The notes beneath the pieces were generated by a model that saw nothing but the letters and a program-made list of their open reading frames with translations, had not been told where the DNA came from and searched no databases. The position numbers were made by a program, and so were the translations under genes. A DNA stretch of 64,000 nucleotides from a bacterium (GTDB taxonomy: Bacteria > Armatimonadota > Zipacnadia > Zipacnadales > UBA11051), in the NCBI GenBank assembly GCA_030604405.1, contig JAUVVY010000004.1, forward strand, positions 86,853-150,852, in the 5' to 3' direction. Within the stretch, counting starts at the first letter, position 1. The number at the start of each line of letters is the position of its first letter. Below are positions 8,088 to 53,005 of this stretch, piece after piece.

Positions 8088-8093
8088 AGAGTT

Positions 8094-8169
8094 AGATTGG
8101 GGACAACCCATTTCTTGTAATTTCTGTAAGTCCTACTCCTCTGCAGCAACAGGTGACTGTCCCCAATTT
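8094..8169. repeat. copy A of IR-flanked 5'-leader element (degenerate, about 76 bp)
   Basis: Arms gattggggacaacccatttc ... caggtgactgtccccaattt with interior atttctgtaagtcctactcct. This is related to copies at 11980 and 22321. It ends about 20 nt before AGGAGG and the ATG of the 8181 gene. Confidence 0.55.
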
Positions 8170-8180
8170 AGCCAGGAGGA

Positions 8181-11979: not shown

Positions 11980-12077
11980 AAATTGGGGACAGTCACCTAT
12001 TTCCTATCATCTCCGGAGTCTCCACTCCTATTCCTGTATGGGCTAGACTGGCGGAAATAGATGACTGTCCCCAATTT
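11980..12077. repeat. copy B of IR-flanked 5'-leader element (98 bp)
   Basis: Left arm aaattggggacagtcacctatttc, right arm gaaatagatgactgtccccaattt (23/24 complementary). Interior agtctccactcctattcctgtatggg. Followed by ccaggagg and the ATG at 12093. Confidence 0.65.
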
Positions 12078-12092
12078 CCAGGAGGTGATCAG

Positions 12093-19227: not shown

Positions 19228-19326
19228 TGTCTCTCAACTCTTTTCTCACGCCTGAATTATCTGCTTTCCAGCAGGTACGCGCTTAGCCTGGCGGCAAACT
19301 CAACCGCAAAGCTGTCGGGCTAGAAA

Positions 19327-19575
19327 CTGTAATTGTACAAATTCTGCTAACGGCTGGGCCGGATTCTCCGGTGCCACCCACTGCGCACTCACACCTCCGG
19401 TGTGGGTACCCGGCACCTCCGTATGCGGCCCCTCCGCAAAACAACGTCTAAGCCTTTGAGCGCGTAGGTCGGGCTTTCCAGCCCGACAGCCGTTGTCGTC
19501 CGGAGGGGCCGCATGGAGGTGAGTTTGCCTGCAAACTCACGGCCATCCGGCCCAAGACTTGTCACAGCACCAGCG
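19327..19575. mobile_element. MITE-like structured repeat, copy 1 (truncated, about 250 bp)
   Basis: Shares about 130 bp of core with 38939..39266: ...aacgtctaa.cctttgagcgcgtaggtcgggctttccagcccgacagccgttgtcgtccggaggggccg.atgg...atccggcccaagactt.tcaca. The left end ctgtaattgtacaaattctgct resembles the terminal inverted repeat of copy 2. The right end overlaps the last four codons and stop of gene 19562..21028. Confidence 0.6.
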
Positions 19576-21028
19576 GCCGGTAGCTCCAGGACTGCATCTT
19601 GCACAGCATGGCAATGCGGCTGTCGTCGTAGAAGGGCGGCGCATTGGTTGAGCCGGCACTGGCGTTCTGGAAGATCGGGTATTGAGCGCACTCGGGCAAG
19701 CCGCCGGTGGGCTGGACGGTGACTTGCTCGGGCAACTCATTTTGCGAAAAGGCCTGAGCCAGCGCCAGCAGGACCTCGCCCGGGCCGGCATCAACGGCGT
19801 GCGCGCGAATGGCATGAGGCGTGCGGTTGTGAGCCATGATGTAAGCGTACACCGAGCGGGCGGCGATAAGGTAATTCGCGCGCAGATATGTCACCGGCGC
19901 GGCCAGCTCCGGGACCGCCTCTACAGGCCCCAGGGTGCGCCGGATTTGCAGCTTGGCGGGCAGCTTGTTGTGCCGCATGACGTGCTCGCCAAGTGTCGCT
20001 AACAAGAACAGCGCATCCGCCGTGGACACGGTCGTATCGCCGGCTTTGAGCGCGTCGAATCTCTGCATCAAATCCCGGGCCATCTGCTGCACCTGGGCGA
20101 GGGTCAGCCACTGGCCGTCCGGCTCTTCGTGGCGCACATAGTAGTCTGCCAGCTTCATGACCTCGATATCATCGCGACTTGCCAGCCACTCGGCGGCGCG
20201 CCGCGTCCACTCGAAATGGGCCTCAGAATCAGCGGCGGTGCGCATCGCCGTCTTGCGCCACTGCCTGTCATGCGGGTAGTAGCCGACCGCCCCGTGCTCT
20301 TCGGTAATTCGGAATGGAATCGTGGCCTCGTACCAGCCCCACCATTCGGAGACCACCCAACAGGTGGGATGCCCCACGACATTGACGTGGTCATAGCCCT
20401 TCTCCAACTGCCGGTCGAAGGCTTCCTGGAATTGCCGCAACTGCTGCTCGGGATCCACGGCGGGCTTTTGTCGCTCCGGGTGCAGGGGATCGTATTCGAA
20501 GCTCCAGTCACCCTGGGGACCGACGACGCGCTTGGCTCGGCCCACAAACAGCGTGTCCATGACCCACGCATTGTGCGGCATGTCATCGCCGAAGCCGCCG
20601 TTGTTCACCCGCACTCCGCCCAAGCGCACCGCATACTGGGTCGCCGGGCTGTGGTTTGCCTGGTGCTGCACGTATGCAGTCGGGAATTGGCCTGTGACCT
20701 CGGCCACTTCGTTCAGGCCCGGGATTTCGATGCTGAGTGCCTTGCTCAGAGCCGTGTCCCAGTCATCGTTGGCCCCATAGACCAGCGCCGGCTCCGGGTA
20801 GTCGAACCAGTAGTTGCCGTGGTAGCAGATGTCGTGATCGGCCAGGGCGGCGGCGACATCATGCCGCCCGTTCAGCCGCATGAACCGCGCCTTCTGTCCG
20901 GCGAAAAAAAGATTCAGCGGTACGCCGACATCGCTGTGTATCTGGCAGAGCCGCAGCAGCGCATCGTCGGATTCGGGATTGTTCGCATCTTCAACATCAA
21001 GCCCTAAGAAAACAGGTATCCTAGCCAT
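19562..21028 (-). CDS. hypothetical protein, about 488 aa, possibly carbohydrate-active
   Basis: Start moved to the internal ATG (MARIPVFLGLDVEDANN) with RBS gaaggtga; the track start is a TTG. The C-terminal codons lie inside the MITE-like element. Confidence 0.45.
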   Translation of the reverse strand: MARIPVFLGLDVEDANNPESDDALLRLCQIHSDVGVPLNLFFAGQKARFMRLNGRHDVAAALADHDICYHGNYWFDYPEPALVYGANDDWDTALSKALSIEIPGLNEVAEVTGQFPTAYVQHQANHSPATQYAVRLGGVRVNNGGFGDDMPHNAWVMDTLFVGRAKRVVGPQGDWSFEYDPLHPERQKPAVDPEQQLRQFQEAFDRQLEKGYDHVNVVGHPTCWVVSEWWGWYEATIPFRITEEHGAVGYYPHDRQWRKTAMRTAADSEAHFEWTRRAAEWLASRDDIEVMKLADYYVRHEEPDGQWLTLAQVQQMARDLMQRFDALKAGDTTVSTADALFLLATLGEHVMRHNKLPAKLQIRRTLGPVEAVPELAAPVTYLRANYLIAARSVYAYIMAHNRTPHAIRAHAVDAGPGEVLLALAQAFSQNELPEQVTVQPTGGLPECAQYPIFQNASAGSTNAPPFYDDSRIAMLCKMQSWSYRPLVL

Positions 21029-21159
21029 GGCGGTCACCTTCGAATGCAGGAGGTTATGTGTGCACCTGCTATTTCCCCGTGGATGCCAACAGCCCTTGCG
21101 CACTTACACAAAGATGCAAAAGGCCGCACGTGTGCTCCCCAAGAAGCTGCTGGGCAGCT

Positions 21160-22320: not shown

Positions 22321-22418
22321 AAATTGGGGACAGTCACCTATTTCTTCGCATTTCCGCAGTCTCCACTCGTATTCCTGTACGGGGTAAATTGGCTGAAATA
22401 GGTGACTGTCCCCAATTT
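22321..22418. repeat. copy C of IR-flanked 5'-leader element (98 bp, perfect 24-bp arms)
   Basis: aaattggggacagtcacctatttc ... gaaataggtgactgtccccaattt, interior agtctccactcgtattcctgtacgggg. It lies directly upstream (minus strand) of the RBS and start of 21160..22302. Its other end overlaps the stop codon of 22417..23076. Confidence 0.7.
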
Positions 22419-23076
22419 ACAGAGCCTCTAACTCCTCATTAACTGTTCTCACCATTGCATCGAGAACGGTCGCAAACCGAGTCTGTCCGTACTCCACAGT
22501 GGCATCCACGCAGTCCTCGCTGATGCCATCGAGCGCATCGGGCCTGTCGAGTTGCTCCATGTCCACCAACTCGGGCCTCATGTGCAGCATCGCGGAGGTC
22601 TCGATGATGCCGGCGTGTTCGCTACGAGGGTCTGTGGGGTGCAGGTTGAAGGGATCGAGCAGAATGATTTTCGATGCCGGGTGCCTGGCCATATACGCGT
22701 CAGCGATGCCCTGGATCAGCAGGCCCTGAACACGCGGGTAATGGCCGGTGCAGGCTACGATCAGCTTGAAGCCCTGCTGGTCGAGCTGGCTGAGCACATC
22801 GGCGACGATGCCGGCGATGGTCCCGTTGCTGAGCAAGAGCGAGCCGGGCCAGCCTACGTGTCCCTCAGTGCCCCAGAAGGTGGGCGGCAAGACCACGCCG
22901 CCGGTCTGCTGGGCCGCCTGCAGGCAGAGCTCGTGCGCGTGCATTGCATCGAAGCCGAACGGCAGATGGAAGCCGTGATACTCCAGCGACCCGATGGGAA
23001 AATAGACCAAAGGCGTCTGCTCGCGGACGGCTGCAAGCTCGTCCGGTCGCATTTCCTCATATCGGACTTTTCTCAT
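22417..23076 (-). CDS. creatininase-family amidohydrolase
   Basis: PIGSLEYHGFHLPFGFD (creatininase metal-binding motif). 219 aa. Confidence 0.65.
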   Translation of the reverse strand: MRKVRYEEMRPDELAAVREQTPLVYFPIGSLEYHGFHLPFGFDAMHAHELCLQAAQQTGGVVLPPTFWGTEGHVGWPGSLLLSNGTIAGIVADVLSQLDQQGFKLIVACTGHYPRVQGLLIQGIADAYMARHPASKIILLDPFNLHPTDPRSEHAGIIETSAMLHMRPELVDMEQLDRPDALDGISEDCVDATVEYGQTRFATVLDAMVRTVNEELEAL

Positions 23077-37827: not shown

Positions 37828-38871
37828 TTAGACCTTCACCTCTTTGCCGCGCTCGGAGGACTTGTAGATGCCGTCCAGGATGCGCTGGGTCATCAGCGCC
37901 TCCTCCCCCGGCACCGGCGACGGCTTGCCCTTGCGAATCGCCTCGGCGAACTGCCGGATCTCCTCGTGGTGCGAAGCGATGCCCCGGTCCGGGCTGACCT
38001 GCACTGTGGTATCTGTCAGCATCCCGGCTGCCTCGCGCACCAGCGTCGGCGGATTGTTCTGGATTCCGCCCTTGGTGCCTGCCAGAAACACGCCGTTGTT
38101 AGGCTGGGTTGAGTTTATCGCCCAGGAGGTTTCCAGCGTCAGCGAGGCGCCGTTTGCGAAGCGGATGAATCCGACCGCCAGCTCGTCAGGGACGGTGAAT
38201 TTCTTGGGATCGTGCGTCATGAGCGAGGGCTTGTTGGATATCTCCAGGTAGATGTTTGCTGACACGCTCACCGGCTCGGGGTGGCCCATCAGCCACATGC
38301 AAAGGTCGAGGATATGAACTGCCAGATCATAGGCAGGGCCGCCGGCGGAAAGCTCCCTGGAGATGAAGGTGCCCCAGGCCGGCACTCCGCGCGGGCGCAG
38401 ATACGATGCGCGGCCCCAATAGATGTCGCCCACCAGACCCTCGTCAACCCAGCGCTTCATGATCAGCGCATCTTCGCCGAAACGCATGCTCTGGGCCACC
38501 ATCAACAGCTTGCCGGCCTGCTTGCCCGCAGCTATCATCTGCCTGGCGTTAGCCACAGAAGTCGTTATTGGCTTTTCGACGATGACGTGACAGCCCCTCT
38601 TGAAGGCCGCTATCGTCGGGGCCTTGTGCACGCAGTTCGGGGTGCAGACGTCAACGATGTCCATCTCAACTTCTCTCAGCATCTTGCTGTAGTCGGTGTA
38701 CAGCCGGTCCTTGGCGATGCCGGCCAACTCGCCGCCCGTGGTCAGGGCCTGCTTGCTCACATCGGCGGCCGCTACGATCTCGGCGTCTTCTACCTCCTGC
38801 CACCCGGGTATGTGGCAGCCCTGCGCGATGCCGCCCACGCCTACAATACCGACCCTGAGCTTCTTAGCCAT
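37828..38871 (-). CDS. Gfo/Idh/MocA family oxidoreductase
   Basis: MAKKLRVGIVGVGGIAQ, VEKPI motifs. Start moved to the internal Met because the track N-extension lies inside the MITE-like element. Confidence 0.8.
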   Translation of the reverse strand: MAKKLRVGIVGVGGIAQGCHIPGWQEVEDAEIVAAADVSKQALTTGGELAGIAKDRLYTDYSKMLREVEMDIVDVCTPNCVHKAPTIAAFKRGCHVIVEKPITTSVANARQMIAAGKQAGKLLMVAQSMRFGEDALIMKRWVDEGLVGDIYWGRASYLRPRGVPAWGTFISRELSAGGPAYDLAVHILDLCMWLMGHPEPVSVSANIYLEISNKPSLMTHDPKKFTVPDELAVGFIRFANGASLTLETSWAINSTQPNNGVFLAGTKGGIQNNPPTLVREAAGMLTDTTVQVSPDRGIASHHEEIRQFAEAIRKGKPSPVPGEEALMTQRILDGIYKSSERGKEVKV

Positions 38872-38938
38872 CAGTAAAGCCTCCCTGAATTGGTCTGTTC
38901 TTACGTCACAAGCAGTCCTTCGTGGAGTCGGGCTGGAA

Positions 38939-39266
38939 CTGTAGTTATGCAAATTCCTGGTCTGTGGCTCATCCATCTGTAATTGTAGGCGCTGGTGCTG
39001 TGATGCGCCTTGGGCCGGATAGGGAACGCGGATTTTGCTTTCGCAAAATCCACCCTATTCGGTCCCTCCGAAAGACAACGTCTAAACCCTTGAGCGCGTA
39101 GGTCGGGCTTTCTAGCCCGACAGCCGTTGTCGTCCGGAGGGGCCGAATGGGGATGAGAGTTTCGAAGAAACTCGAAGGGGCCCCCATCCGGCCCAAGACT
39201 TATCACGCCAGCATTGCCTGTTACGAACAAGGGCTCATCACCTACCAGAAATTTGCATAACTACAG
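38939..39266. mobile_element. MITE-like structured repeat, copy 2 (full length, about 328 bp) with 23-bp terminal inverted repeats
   Basis: Terminal inverted repeats ctgtagttatgcaaattcctggt / accagaaatttgcataactacag. About 80-nt imperfect inverted termini. Internal hairpins (gtcgggctttctagcccgac; gagtttcgaagaaactc) carry compensatory changes relative to copy 1. Track ORFs 38969..39196(-) and 19389..19691(-) share RPLRTTTAVGLESPTYALKGLDVV because both come from this repeat. Confidence 0.7.
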
Positions 39267-39350
39267 CGGAAGCCCGACCTACGCGGAGGATGGGATAATT
39301 GGCTCCCCATTTCGCGATCTACGCGACGAATCAGACAATTGCTTGTATGC

Positions 39351-39707
39351 CTAAGTCCCGACCACTATTTCGTCATCGGGATCAAAAGCCGGATTTACCA
39401 CGATTAGTGCCTTGAAATCGCCCCAGCCACGGTGCGTGACACCGGCGGGGATGTAGATTGCCGTGCCCGGCCGGACCTGGTGCGTCTCGCCGTCAAGTTC
39501 CACGTACCCTTCGCCCTCGATGATGTAGTAGATCTCGTCGGCGATCTCGTGGAAGTGCGCGGCACCGTGCGTAATGTGAGTCACGTGCGCACTCATTGCG
39601 GCCCCGTCGTCGCCGGTGATGATACGAGTGCTTTGCCCGCAGGGGCACGCCACGGCCTCGACATCATTGTAGTGCCGCACTACGGGCTTGCGTTTGGCTG
39701 TGCTCAC
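39351..39707 (-). CDS. cupin-domain protein
   Basis: 118 aa. The motif HxH...E...G...H (HITHGAAHFHEIADEIYYIIEGEGYV) is a cupin-2 signature. Confidence 0.65.
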   Translation of the reverse strand: MSTAKRKPVVRHYNDVEAVACPCGQSTRIITGDDGAAMSAHVTHITHGAAHFHEIADEIYYIIEGEGYVELDGETHQVRPGTAIYIPAGVTHRGWGDFKALIVVNPAFDPDDEIVVGT

Positions 39708-46974: not shown

Positions 46975-49323
46975 TTACTGCTGGCCCTCTAGCTCGACCA
47001 AGGCCGCCTCGATCGCCTCCCGCACGACCGGCAGCTTCTCTACGACCAGGCGGGAGCGGAGGGGCTGGATGGCGCGCACGTCGCCCAGCTTGCCCAAGGC
47101 CTCCGCCGCTGGACGGCGCACTCCGGCGTATTTGTCCCTTAAGCCGAATATGAGTGGCTCAACTGCGCGGCGGTCGCCAAACTTGGCCAACGCCTCCGCC
47201 GCCGTCCGAAAGAGATAGGGCTGATCGCGATCCAACGCAGAGATGAGAGGCTCGATGGCCCGGTCGTCCCCGATCTCCCCCAGCGCCTTTGCCGCGGCAA
47301 CGCTTGTGAAGAGAGGCTGCTGGTTCAATAGCATGATAAGTGGCTCGACGGCACGCGGGTCCCCAAGTGCGCCGAGCGCTTTCACCGCATCGCGACAGAA
47401 TTGCGAGCTTGCGACTACGTGTGCCACCAGCGGCTCCAGTGCACGCGCATCGCCAAGTTTGCCCAACGCCTCCGCCGCCCTGAAGCTCCGCCATTTGTCG
47501 CCGGACTCGAAGAATGGCAGCACGTACGGAATTGCCCGCGGATCGCCCAGCTTTCCCAGCGCGCCTACCGCAGAGCTCTGGACCTCCTTATGGTCATCGT
47601 TGGTGGCCGCGAACAGCGGCTCTATCGCGCGCGGATCGCCGATCTTACCAAGCGCCCACGCCGAGGCCTTGCGCACCTCAAACCCCGGGTCCTTCAGAGC
47701 GGCTATGAGTGGCTCAACTACCTGCGGGTCGGCGATGTCAGCCAGGGTACTGGCAGCGGTACACCGCACTTTCACGTCCTCGTCTTCGTCCTGCAACAGG
47801 CCGATGAGTAGCTTTGCCGCCTGGGGACTGCCGTTGTAGGCCAGAGCCCCCGCCGCGCGATAGCGGAGGTTGTCGTCCTCGTCCTTCATGACGCCGACTA
47901 GTAGCTCCAGCGCCCGCGGGTCGCCGCTGTGACTCAACGCGTAGTTCGCATCGAATCTGCCATACCTCTTGCGTGTCTTGAAGGCTGCTACCAGAGGCTC
48001 GGTGCCACGGGGATCCCCAATCGCGGCCAATGCCGAAGCCGCAGCATTGCTGACATCGTTATCTTCATCCTCTAGTGTAGCGATGAGGGGCTCCACAGCT
48101 CTGGGGTCGCCAAACTCGCACAATGCAGATGCCGCGCACCGCCGCACGTCCTTGTCCTCATCCTCCAAAGTTGCCATTACTGGCTCGACCGCCTGCAAGT
48201 CGCCGATCGTCCCCAGTGCTGTCGCTGCGGCGGAACGAACGCGGTTGGCTTCATCTTTCAGTGCGACTATGAGCGGCTCGACGGCCCGCGGGTCCCCGAG
48301 CTTGCCCAGCGCCACTGCTGCGTATGCGCCCACCCTCGGATTCTCATCTTCTAGTGCGACTATCAGCGGCTGCAGTGCCCGTATGTCACAAAGCCAGCAT
48401 AGTCCCTCCGCCGCGCACCTGCGGACATCACTATCCTCGTCACCTAGTGCGGTGATGACTGGCTCGACCGCCCGCTTGTCGCCTAGCCAGCCCACCGAGA
48501 ATGCGGCAGCCCTGCGAACGCGGCTATCTTCATCCTTCAATGCGGCGATGAGCGGCTCGATAGCCCGCTCGTCGCCGACATCGCGTAACGCGTAGGCCGC
48601 AGCCCTGCGAATATCGCTATCATCATCTTGCAAGGCAACAATGAGAGGTTCAACAGCCTGCGGGTCGCCCAGTTCGGATAACGCGTTCGCGGCCGCCGAT
48701 ACGACACCGCTATTCTCATCCTGCAAGGCGGCAATCAGTTGCTCGACACTGCGCTGATCGCGAAGTTCGCCCAGTGCTCGGGCCACGGCCTCCCGCACCT
48801 GCGGACTGTGATCCGTGAATATGGAGAGAAGCGGCTCGACAGCTCGTCTATCGCGGGCTTCGGCCAATGCCTCTGCCGCGCCCACGCGAACAAGCTCGGA
48901 CTCATCGCCCAAGGCAGCCAGGAGGGGTGCAAACGCCGGCTCACCCATTCGCCCCAGGGCCTGTGCGGCTTCCTGGCCTGGCGATGTAGGCGCCGGCCCA
49001 CTGTCTGTCCACGAGTGGGTGCTTTTAGTGGGCGTTCTATCACCTAGTGTCTCCAGCAAGGCCAGTATGGACCCTTTGCCCCTCAAGCCCTTGCGCCCCA
49101 TCTCCGTCACGGTGTCAGATTTTTCGGTCGCGCTGCCGGTCCGCAGTATGGCTATATACGCCTTCTCGGCATCCGGTGCTTCCGCTTCCCACTGCAGTAG
49201 TTGGGCCTTGAGTTCGGGATGCTGATCGAGGAAGGTCAATTCGTCGGCGCCGCACGGGATCGCGCCCCACACCACCATAAGCACGAGAATCAACAGCCAC
49301 ATCCATTGACATCTCATAGACAT
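46975..49323 (-). CDS. secreted HEAT-repeat (PBS-lyase-type) protein, about 20 repeats
   Basis: Signal peptide [22 protein letters not shown] long array of about 31-aa repeats of the form A-PLI-AL-D-D--VR--AA-ALG-IGD. Confidence 0.8.
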
Positions 49324-50556: not shown

Positions 50557-51651
50557 CTACCACTCTCTGGGGTCGGGAACTTCCACCGGCTCGCTGCCGG
50601 CTTCGGCCGACATATGCGCGCAGATGCCCGGAAGCGTCATGTCCAGGGCCTCATAGACATCAATCGGCGGGTCGGTGTCATTGATAATAGACTGGACGAA
50701 ATCGTCCACCATGAAGTACTCGCTGCTGCCGTGTCCGCCGGTCAGTGCCTCGGGCGGCGCGCCGGGGTGGTCGGCGTCACAGTCGAAGAGCATCGGCCCG
50801 CTGAGCTTGTCGTACTTTTCGCGGTACAGCCGGTGCGGGCTGGCCGTGGTGACGGTGCCAAAGCGCGATGACTCGATCTGCCCCTCGGTGCCGTAGATGG
50901 TGAACCAGTGATGTGGCGGCTGCTTGGCTACCGAAAAGCTGCACAGCAGCTTGAGCGTCACATTCTTGGCGGTTTTGAACAGGCCGACTTCCATATCAAT
51001 GCAGCCGATGTCCGGGCGGCGGCGGTTGCCGGTGTGCATGCCGACCGCCGTGACGCAGCGGTCGTGGCACATCTGGATGATCGGCCCCAGGTCGTGGGTG
51101 CAGTAGTAGATCGGCGGCATACTCGCGCGCCATGCCAGTTCCCCTTTCTTCCCGCCGGCGCCGTCCGCTTGCCGGACCATGCCCTCCTCGTATGGGTGCA
51201 CGTACTCAGCCTCGGCGTAGATGATCTCGCCCAGTTCGCCCGCCTCGACTATCTGGCGGTAGGTCTGCACCCAGGGAAAGTAGCTCATGTTCTCAGCGAA
51301 GCTGTACTTGGCCTCGCTGGTCTTGACCGCCGCCACCAGCGTCTGGGCTTCCTCGATGCTAGAGACCGCCGGCACCTCGCCCAGCACGTGTTTGCCCGCC
51401 TCCAGGCACGCGATGGACTGCTCGGCATGCAGCGGCAGCGGCGTGGCGATGTATATTACCTCGCAGTCGCTTTCCAGCAGCTCCTCGAAGCTGCCGTAGG
51501 CGTTGGGGACAGCGAACTCTTTTGCCGCCGCCTGTGCCTTGTCCGGATTGTGGTCGGCCACCGCGTACAGCTCGCAATCTTTGTGATGGGCAAAAACGCT
51601 GGCCGGCCCCAGTCCCCGAAACAATCCGACTACACCGATCTTCAGTGCCAT
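50557..51651 (-). CDS. Gfo/Idh/MocA family oxidoreductase (tandem paralog 1)
   Basis: MALKIGVVGLFRG. C-terminal ...PVEVPDPREW, shared with the neighbour. Confidence 0.75.
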   Translation of the reverse strand: MALKIGVVGLFRGLGPASVFAHHKDCELYAVADHNPDKAQAAAKEFAVPNAYGSFEELLESDCEVIYIATPLPLHAEQSIACLEAGKHVLGEVPAVSSIEEAQTLVAAVKTSEAKYSFAENMSYFPWVQTYRQIVEAGELGEIIYAEAEYVHPYEEGMVRQADGAGGKKGELAWRASMPPIYYCTHDLGPIIQMCHDRCVTAVGMHTGNRRRPDIGCIDMEVGLFKTAKNVTLKLLCSFSVAKQPPHHWFTIYGTEGQIESSRFGTVTTASPHRLYREKYDKLSGPMLFDCDADHPGAPPEALTGGHGSSEYFMVDDFVQSIINDTDPPIDVYEALDMTLPGICAHMSAEAGSEPVEVPDPREW

Positions 51652-51907
51652 AATCTTATGCCTCCCTTAATTGTGCTCCCATCAGGCAGATGTTTGCCTG
51701 TCACCGTTGCCGTTGCTTTTCGGAGGGGCCGCGTCGAGCGTGGCGAGCCCGGCCCACGCAGGACGCTATCCTGGCGAGATCTTCAGAGCCAAACGCTGAA
51801 TGACAACGGCTGGGCCAGCCTTGAAAGCTTCGCAAAGCTTCCTGTGACAGGCCCCTCCATTACGACTAACGACTCCAGGCCCCCGCAACATGGCAAAGCT
51901 CTCGCGC

Positions 51908-53005
51908 CTACCATTCCCTCGGATCCGGTACTGCCACCGGCTCGCCGCCGTTTTCCGCCGAGATGTGCGCGCAGATGCCCGGCAGCGTCCAATCCAGCCC
52001 CTCATAGACATCTATCGGCGGCTTGGTGTCATTGAGGATGCACTGCACAAACTCGTCCACCATGAAGTATTCGCTGGTGCCGTGACCGCCGACGGTGGCT
52101 TCCGCCGGGGCGGAGGGGTCGTTATTGGGCACATGCAACGTCATCGGCCCGCCGAGCTTGTCGTACTTCTCCCGATACAGCCGGTGCGTGCTGCAGCCGG
52201 CCTCCACCGCAAAGCGGCTCTGCTCGATCTGCCCCTCGGTGCCATAGACGCAGAACCAGTGATGCGCCGGCTCCTTGGCCGTCGCGAAGCCGCAAAGCTG
52301 CTTGATCGTGACGTTCCTGGCGGTCTTCAGCAGCGCCACTTCCATGTCAATGACGCCCAGGTCGGTTCGCCGCCGGCAGCCCGTGTGCATGCCCACTGCC
52401 GTCACGCAGCGGTCCTCAAGCCACTGCAGCAGCGGCCCTAAATCGTGGGTGCAGTAGTGTATCGGCGGCAGGCTCGCGCGCCAGGTCGGCTTGCCCTCAA
52501 CGCCGCCGCCCATGCCATCGGGCCGGCCTTCCATCAGGCTCTCGCAGTTGTGGATGTACTCGCCCTCGGCATAGATTATCTCGCCCAGTTCGCCATCGCG
52601 CACCAGGTCCCAGTACATCTGGCAATACGGAAAGTAGCACATATTCTCGGCGAAGCTATACTTCAGGCCGGACTCCCTGACGGCCTTAACTAGCTCCTGG
52701 CCGCCCTCGATGCTGGGCACCGCCGGCACCTCGCACTGCACGTGCTTGCCCGCCCGCAGCGCAGCAACCGAATGTTCCGCATGAAGCGGCGCGGGCGTAG
52801 CGACGAACACTGCGTCTATGTCGGCCTCCAGCATGTCGTCGAGTTCATCATACCGCTGCGGCACTTCGAGCCTGTCGCACAGCGCCTTGAGGAGGTCGGG
52901 ATTTCTATCCGCGACAGCGACGAGTTCGCAGTCTTTATGGTCCTTGAAGACGCTCGCTGGCCCGCTACCTCTTCCGGCACCGACTACGCCGATCCGCAGG
53001 GACAT
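51908..53005 (-). CDS. Gfo/Idh/MocA family oxidoreductase (tandem paralog 2)
   Basis: MSLRIGVVGAGRG. About 60% identical to 50557..51651, with the same C-terminus PVAVPDPREW. Confidence 0.75.
   Translation of the reverse strand: MSLRIGVVGAGRGSGPASVFKDHKDCELVAVADRNPDLLKALCDRLEVPQRYDELDDMLEADIDAVFVATPAPLHAEHSVAALRAGKHVQCEVPAVPSIEGGQELVKAVRESGLKYSFAENMCYFPYCQMYWDLVRDGELGEIIYAEGEYIHNCESLMEGRPDGMGGGVEGKPTWRASLPPIHYCTHDLGPLLQWLEDRCVTAVGMHTGCRRRTDLGVIDMEVALLKTARNVTIKQLCGFATAKEPAHHWFCVYGTEGQIEQSRFAVEAGCSTHRLYREKYDKLGGPMTLHVPNNDPSAPAEATVGGHGTSEYFMVDEFVQCILNDTKPPIDVYEGLDWTLPGICAHISAENGGEPVAVPDPREW

Follow-up and report, generated by a model that had tools for sequence, protein, structure and literature searches.

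The insertion sequence IS1397 enters the loop of REP hairpins and duplicates 3–4 bp of target. REP hairpins are also the targets of other insertion sequences, drawn from five families in all (PMC1525189): IS1397 and ISKpn1 belong to the IS3 family, and the others to IS110, IS4, IS256, and IS5. All are autonomous and encode a transposase. The borrowing of a transposase by a non-coding module has been documented for ssr9/ISPpu9 of Pseudomonas putida (PMC12288879), an IS110-type system in which ssr9, located in REPs, encodes a small RNA, lacks long terminal inverted repeats, and spreads through transposase supplied in trans. Bacterial MITEs have been defined from examples such as Nezha, Chunjie, Correia/NEMIS, and ERIC (PMC3184786); they measure about 70 to 400 bp, carry no transposase gene, and end in terminal repeats of roughly 15 to 30 bp that are conserved among copies. 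REPs of the GTAG type are palindromes of 20–40 bp with a 6–13-bp stem, a short loop, and a terminal unpaired GTAG or GTGG; they are mostly extragenic, high in copy number, and associated with a gene for a RAYT, a transposase of the Y1/HUH type. Their canonical form combines the tag with an 8-bp G+C-rich stem and a 3–4-nt loop (PMC2817692, PMC3733652, PMC3116915), and REPs with long structured loops or inside longer palindromes are known, as in A. variabilis GTAG-15 and H. neapolitanus CGTC-1 (PMC3733652). Our literature search found nothing on such repeats in Armatimonadota.

Here we describe a non-coding element of 328–329 bp that lies at 38939–39267 (+ strand) of the window, a 64,000-nucleotide stretch of DNA, between two genes of an uncultured Armatimonadota bacterium. 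We judge it probable, at roughly two chances in three, that this is a non-autonomous transposable element, a MITE, that targets REP loops and is moved in trans. It resembles described MITEs in its size below 400 bp, its terminal inverted repeats, its short flanking direct repeat, its long hairpin, its lack of a gene, its several copies, its filled versus empty orthologous sites, and its position between operon genes that it did not destroy. It is unlike them in that no parent IS with the same ends is known, in that its target is a structured repeat (the REP loop) rather than a short sequence, and in its interior of nested palindromes with a central REP. REP-hairpin-specific insertion is shared with IS1397, ISKpn1, and their counterparts in the other families, from which the element differs in being gene-less and in coming from Armatimonadota. 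Like ssr9 it is non-coding and located in REPs, but it has 23-bp terminal repeats and a putative 4-bp duplication.

The body, which is missing from orthologous loci, comprises both terminal repeats, all that lies between them, and one further base (C at 39267); its ends are shared by at least 12 termini elsewhere. The left terminal inverted repeat, CTGTAGTTATGCAAATTCCTGGT, at 38939–38961 (+ strand), matches the right one, at 39244–39266 (− strand), at 22 of 23 positions, and 100 shuffles of the window contained no such pair. The preliminary description had proposed a MITE-like full-length copy with 23-bp terminal inverted repeats and about 80 nt of imperfect inverted ends around a core, and the inverted arms bear this out: they measure 40 nt (38927–38966/39239–39278, 83% identical), 38 nt (38987–39024/39182–39219, 76%), and 31 nt (39053–39083/39122–39152, 84%). 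The segment 38920–39290 is predicted to fold into a single nested hairpin with energies of −201.2 (+ strand) and −202.8 kcal/mol (− strand), compared with about −125 kcal/mol for shuffled versions (z ≈ −14 on both strands). No match to the element was found in Rfam 15 over the whole window at the gathering score, and a search of 38850–39350 at a permissive E-value returned only chance-level matches (E ≥ 0.16). Coding capacity was considered and ruled out, since no reading frame is kept among copies; stop-free frames exist and shift from copy to copy.

The interior of the element is a stack of nested palindromes with a REP copy at its centre. An inner palindromic unit, TGGGCCGGAT...ATCCGGCCCA, at 39011–39195 (+ strand) forms a predicted four-way junction made up of a 10-bp closing stem, hairpin H-a, a long stem S4, and hairpin H-b. 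Across copies this unit varies from 171 to 239 nt and the four-way junction is kept, with H-a (GGATTTTGC TTTC GCAAAATCC, 39030–39051, + strand) swapped for unrelated hairpins; H-b (GAGTTTC GAA GAAACTC) lies at 39157–39173 (+ strand). Within the unit a conserved unpaired segment, TCTAAACCCTTGAGCGC (39081–39097, + strand), shows at most 2 to 3 substitutions among copies from at least 4 genomes. It adjoins the internal GTAG-tagged REP at 39098–39121 (+ strand), which consists of GTAG followed by GTCGGGCT TTCT AGCCCGAC and has an invariant stem in all copies. The internal and target hairpins have the tag, 8-bp stem, and 3–4-nt loop of GTAG REPs, and they are nearly the same as RAYT-associated REPs, of which GTAGGTCGGCCTTCAGGCCGAC is one (PMC2817692). 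A REP that is central in a longer conserved palindrome, together with mosaic, modular copies, recalls GTAG-15, CGTC-1, and BIME-type mosaics; unlike GTAG-15 and CGTC-1, the long palindrome described here ends like a transposon, and its insertion polymorphism is proven.

An exact-pattern scan in which each species was represented by one genome turned up the core in a pair of uncultured MAGs (Ca. Zipacnadia JALGTY01, Armatimonadia CAYMIN01), and a scan with an independent core pattern added six loci in metagenome contigs. The element is the sole sequence common to the window and these loci. Three full-length copies were recovered (window 38939–39267 and loci L001 and L011), many others being truncated or mosaic. 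The terminal consensus, (C)TGTAGTTATGCARATT, is present at at least 12 termini in two Armatimonadota MAGs and in metagenome contigs; the conservation of the ends in other copies, on which the preliminary description had staked its reading, therefore holds in other genomes.

The element sits inside a split REP, and its flanks read GTCGGGCT GGAA / CTGTAG...CTACAG C / GGAA GCCCGAC CTACGCG. One stem half of this target REP, on the − strand, is GTCGGGCT as written on the + strand at 38927–38934. The other, with its GTAG tag, is at 39271–39285 (− strand), where the + strand reads AGCCCGAC plus CTACGCG and the − strand CGCGTAG GTCGGGCT; positions 39270–39285 are the perfect reverse complement of 39095–39110 in the internal REP. 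When the flanks are joined and the element and one GGAA are taken out, the result is GTCGGGCTGGAAGCCCGAC, the reverse complement of a solitary REP, GTCGGGCTTCCAGCCCGAC, that is intact with its GTAG tag in L001, L010, and L047. Tag bases lie unpaired beside both hairpins, as GTAG at 39098–39101 in the internal REP and as CTAC at 39279–39282 in the target, and solitary units carry GTAG or GTGG. The 2 outer half-REPs of the 328-bp element are thus halves of a single split REP. A REPIN joins two whole REPs, inverted relative to each other, across a short spacer within about 100 nt, and the element is neither a REP nor a REPIN.

The preliminary description had called for target-site duplications of 2–10 bp, and a candidate can be read from the sequence: GGAA, comprising the REP loop and one stem base, at 38935–38938 on the left and again at 39268–39271 on the right. 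The repeat is direct although the surrounding flanks are palindromic. The duplication remains putative, as C at 39267 separates the right-hand GGAA from the terminal repeat by a one-base offset and the match among the three full-length copies falls from 4 of 4 bases here to 3 of 4 in L011 and 2 of 4 in L001.

Insertion within REP hairpins, as known for IS1397, is documented by 15 junctions and by the comparison of filled with intact REPs. Each of the 15 recovered termini (15/15) is preceded by a REP half-stem and 4–5 loop bases. The outer half-stems differ among copies (GTCGGGCT, CTCGGGCT, and GTCAGGCT), as do the loops (GGAA, AGAAA, and TCCA), and both vary in step with the solitary REP variants of the same genomes while the internal REP stays constant. 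Because the outer stems match solitary variants and the internal REP does not change, we conclude that the copies landed in different REPs. Some MAG loci hold several REP units, with up to 5 of them within 8 kb of L014. The 64-kb window contains no solitary REP, only element-associated units.

Three sets of relatives show what the locus looks like when the element is absent. The gene order sulfatase–cupin–Gfo is kept in all three, and FUN14 and GGDEF genes are also present in the two closest. In loci L057–59 the Gfo protein is 96% identical and the cupin–Gfo spacer is 64 bp; in L060–63 the values are 88% and 70 bp, and in L064–66, 82% and 61 bp, in every case without element or REP. The spacer in the window measures 479 bp, and since orthologous loci without the element have 61–70 bp, the element is an insertion. 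Window positions 39365–39337 and 38914–38860 align to L057, the closest relative, which leaves about 420 bp of extra DNA at 38915–39336 (the element, the target REP, and the REP flanks), with outer bounds fixed to about 15 nt at best, the nearest empty site having diverged. About 90 bases of this interval lie beyond the element and comprise the REP and its flanks, likewise missing from the relatives. On the cupin side of the target REP, a 27-nt direct repeat (39275–39301 and 39315–39341, 74% identical, CGAYCTACGCG...GAYAATTG) has a distal copy that overlaps the sequence aligning with the relatives' empty site; it could derive from an old duplication or represent a further degenerate REP tag.

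The empty sites in L057–66 thus document mobility for this copy (copy 2), and for copy 1 the corresponding evidence is an intact target REP in loci L067–L070. Copy 1, at 19327–19566 (+ strand), retains one terminal repeat and the core, which recurs at 19416–19565 with 83–89% identity; a deletion has removed its other end and, with it, the final 3 codons of the adjoining gene. That gene has a 90% identical orthologue in L067–L070, where the spacer holds an intact REP doublet, ...CCGTAG GTCGGGCT TTCT AGCCCGAC AGGTTTGCGGTTGAGCTTGCCGCC AGGCTAGAAAGCCTGG CCTACGCGG.... What remains in the window is T-TTCT-AGCCCGAC with 30 nt of adjoining sequence (41 of 43 positions identical to the relative), fused directly to the terminal repeat of copy 1. 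This half of the ancestral REP with its flank occupies 19284–19326 (− strand) and is 95% identical to L067:4587–4629, where the REP is intact. The junction falls where copy 2 also splits its REP, just after C and ahead of the final T in the 5′ stem. Since L067 has an intact REP at the same site, the REP is older than copy 1, and the alignment indicates that at this site the REP was present first and the element then entered its loop. The far-side deletion cost the locus its remaining REP half and 124 nt of spacer, and it shortened the gene by three codons at its 3′ end.

The doublet itself (L067:4576–4650) is an inverted, REPIN-like pair, GTAG GTCGGGCT TTCT AGCCCGAC, a 22-nt spacer, and CCAGGCT AGAA AGCCTGG CCTAC, and in this respect the relatives resemble REPIN systems. 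Compared with L067, the window has lost about 125 nt, beginning in the loop of the second REP. The gene affected (19562–21031, − strand) encodes a conserved 490-amino-acid protein that ends ...SWSYRPLVL* in the window versus ...SWSYRPLVQNV* in its closest orthologue, P0121; the other six orthologues have similar three-residue tails. Its stop codon in the window comes from element sequence (19562–19580), and copy 1 with its associated deletion accounts for the loss of the last three codons.

The outer GTCGGGCT arms were at first favoured as part of the element itself, since the relatives have no REP at the copy-2 site, and this assignment was largely rejected on the strength of L067 and the variation of the outer stems. 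The same material bears on a rival explanation that we hold to be rather unlikely, namely, a composite mobile unit in which a REP has a loop grown to a 330-nt insert and the genome's REP-associated tyrosine transposase (RAYT or TIRYT) recognises the single-stranded GTCGGGCT/AGCCCGAC stem and GTAG and copies the whole hairpin. Joint arrival would agree with the three sets of relatives lacking both REP and element at the copy-2 site, and with the window being without solitary REPs. The inverted symmetry also reaches past the REP stem into TCCTYCGYGTAG on both arms, GTAG motifs stand at the foot of several nested stems (38941, 38984, and 39098), and the precedents for REPs with long structured loops or within longer palindromes were noted above (PMC3733652). 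The REP-less relatives do count against the MITE reading, which then needs two successive events at copy 2 or a REP and element moving jointly; the lack of solitary REPs in the window and the recovery of no more than three full-length copies also weigh against it. However, copy 1 abuts an ancestral REP that is intact in L067, pointing to insertion into an existing REP, and outer stems and loops follow the genomic REP variants whereas the internal REP is constant. Moreover, the element is flanked by loop bases in direct repeat, an arrangement that HUH-type copying does not produce. A six-frame search for RAYT-like HUH...YxxxNP open reading frames found none in the window and all loci, a result that weighs little since these are small parts of the host genomes. 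A somewhat less probable idea is a self-nesting system, in which several kinds of small palindromic element in these Armatimonadota genomes would each enter the apical loop of another hairpin repeat through a structure-specific single-strand (HUH/RAYT-like) or RNA-guided enzyme rather than a DDE enzyme. If so, an element with its own preferred target, a REP, at its centre could lead to recursive stacking.

On the reading of a MITE entering REP loops, a GTAG-tagged REP arrived earlier in the former 64-bp cupin–Gfo spacer, and the element then entered the apical loop of this existing hairpin, GTCGGGCT-TCC-AGCCCGAC. In the process it apparently duplicated 4 bases at the dyad (GGAA on the + strand, TTCC on the − strand). 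A transposase encoded elsewhere in the genome would presumably act in trans and recognise the terminal repeats, and by analogy with known REP-targeting elements it may pick the symmetric REP stem-loop as its target and make a 4-bp staggered cut around the dyad. The search for an autonomous element with these terminal repeats, or for a transposase, covered the window, about 100 loci, viral contigs, and plasmids and came back empty, which counts against the MITE reading. Pairs of the terminal repeats 1–3 kb apart were absent from every locus examined, and the whole element had no match among plasmids. Matches to the terminal-repeat pattern in viral contigs (n = 37) were all chance 16–21-mers and were discarded.

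Alternatively, the mobilising enzyme could be an IS110-type (bridge-RNA-guided) or similar recombinase serving an ssr9-like module, with the internal REP as guide or recognition mimic. In favour of this, the copy of its own target that the element holds is embedded in a multi-helix fold which, like its unpaired segment, is conserved. IS110 relatives also typically insert at REPs, and hijacking by a non-coding module has a documented case (PMC12288879, PMC1525189). We nevertheless regard this as improbable, because 23-bp terminal inverted repeats and a 4-bp duplication are atypical of IS110 elements, the internal REP would pair internally instead of with the target, there is no Rfam family match, and a recombinase gene is absent nearby. 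The internal and target REPs also vary independently of each other (TTCT versus TCC in the loop, G versus C in the stem), and a role of the internal REP as a guide for target choice was rejected on this ground.

The genes on either side raise the question of local effects. Directly upstream in the direction of transcription is a cupin gene (39351–39707, − strand), 61–70 bp from the Gfo gene in relatives, and downstream is a Gfo/Idh/MocA oxidoreductase gene of 347 amino acids (37828–38871, − strand; start MAKKLRVGIVG). An open reading frame of 382 amino acids reaches 38976, inside the element; position 1 of the Pfam GFO_IDH_MocA profile falls at its residue 40, nearly all of the best 120 Gfo homologues have 345–351 amino acids (a few are shorter, a handful have 359–360), and an independent gene call on the public contig gives a 347-amino-acid protein. 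Because the Pfam domain start, homologue lengths, and gene call agree, the start at 38871 is the supported one on sequence grounds and the longer frame is an artefact, its spurious 35-codon N-terminal extension being accounted for by the element. The preliminary description had placed the start there with the element about 70 bp upstream, and the distance to the left terminal repeat is indeed 67 nt. The public contig stops at window position 38952, within that repeat, as expected because repeats break assemblies.

The ribosome-binding site and the 43 nt preceding the Gfo start codon are intact. A promoter contribution, also suggested in the preliminary description, finds no backing, since no sigma-70-type promoter was found in 38700–39500; intrinsic terminators were likewise absent from this interval. 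The companion suggestion, a leader, is tenable only insofar as the element has come to occupy what used to be a 64-bp spacer within the operon. There, a predicted hairpin of about −200 kcal/mol would stand about 50–65 nt upstream of the Gfo ribosome-binding site, and the local consequence is that a very stable hairpin splits a tightly spaced cupin–Gfo operon junction that was probably co-transcribed.

A functional structured RNA gene, or a cis-regulatory leader acting as promoter, attenuator, or mRNA stabiliser, that selection retains for what it does to the Gfo/Idh/MocA gene would fit a fold that is conserved and very stable and in which subfamilies differ by a few compensatory changes (e.g., T-A to G-C in stem S4), and mRNA stability can be altered by REPs and MITEs (PMC3733652, PMC3184786). 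Most copies are also intergenic between co-directional genes, and about 7 of 10 share one orientation relative to flanking genes, a bias that is not significant and comes from a crude ORF heuristic in G+C-rich DNA. We consider selection of this kind very unlikely, as orthologous loci do without the element, copies adjoin unrelated genes and are in many cases truncated or mosaic, both strands fold equally well, and neither promoter- or terminator-like sites nor an Rfam match support it. Compensatory changes among five inner units are few and the covariation term is unfavourable at +2.16, so that selection on structure is neither proven nor excluded by this comparison. The effect of the element on its neighbours is most likely incidental, and its "function" is most likely selfish propagation.

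Taken as a new family of MITEs that targets REP loops, the element combines components that each have a precedent (PMC3184786, PMC3733652, PMC1525189). Two features stand out: the strictness with which an element that has no gene targets REP loops, and the presence inside it of a copy of that target. It adds a new repeat family from a phylum known almost solely through metagenomes and implies that MITEs, like complete IS elements, find safe landing sites in REPs. The REP within the element could seed further insertion events, which may partly account for the mosaic and nested character of repeats in these genomes.

Several further repeats were observed in the window and in other genomes. A degenerate fragment of the element family, matching the right-hand part of the copy in L030, lies at 51700–51830 between tandem paralogous genes (50557–52842) that are spaced 1351–1354 nt apart and share blocks of 71–90% identity. 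Related MAGs contain the element core inverted relative to its arms and also carry more small palindromic modules (for example, GGGTACCCAC...GTGGGT, CTCCCCTCTCCC...GGGAGAGGGG, and CGCCTTCGCTGAAGC...GGCGGGCAAGCCG), which are nested in one another and in REP loops at L012:760–960, L014:7536–7660, L007:2280–2380, L042:740–1101, and L017:3570–4180. The betaproteobacterial Thiobacillus sp. 65-29 (L006:6736–6805) has a REP doublet, GTAGGTCGGGCTTCAGCCCGAC ... GTCGGGTTGAAACCCGACCTAC, whose tag and stem are the same, so this REP type is not confined to Armatimonadota. A second, unrelated palindromic family of about 100 nt, with 24-nt inverted ends (AAATTGGGGACAGTCACCTATTTC ... GAAATAGGTGACTGTCCCCAATTT) and no Rfam match, is present in the window at 11980–12081, 22321–22422, and about 8090–8170, and all three copies stop a few bases before a ribosome-binding site and ATG. 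Finally, at least 17 tandem repeats of 93 nt (31 codons), 60–78% identical to one another, fill 47060–48880 within a long open reading frame that probably encodes a repeat protein.
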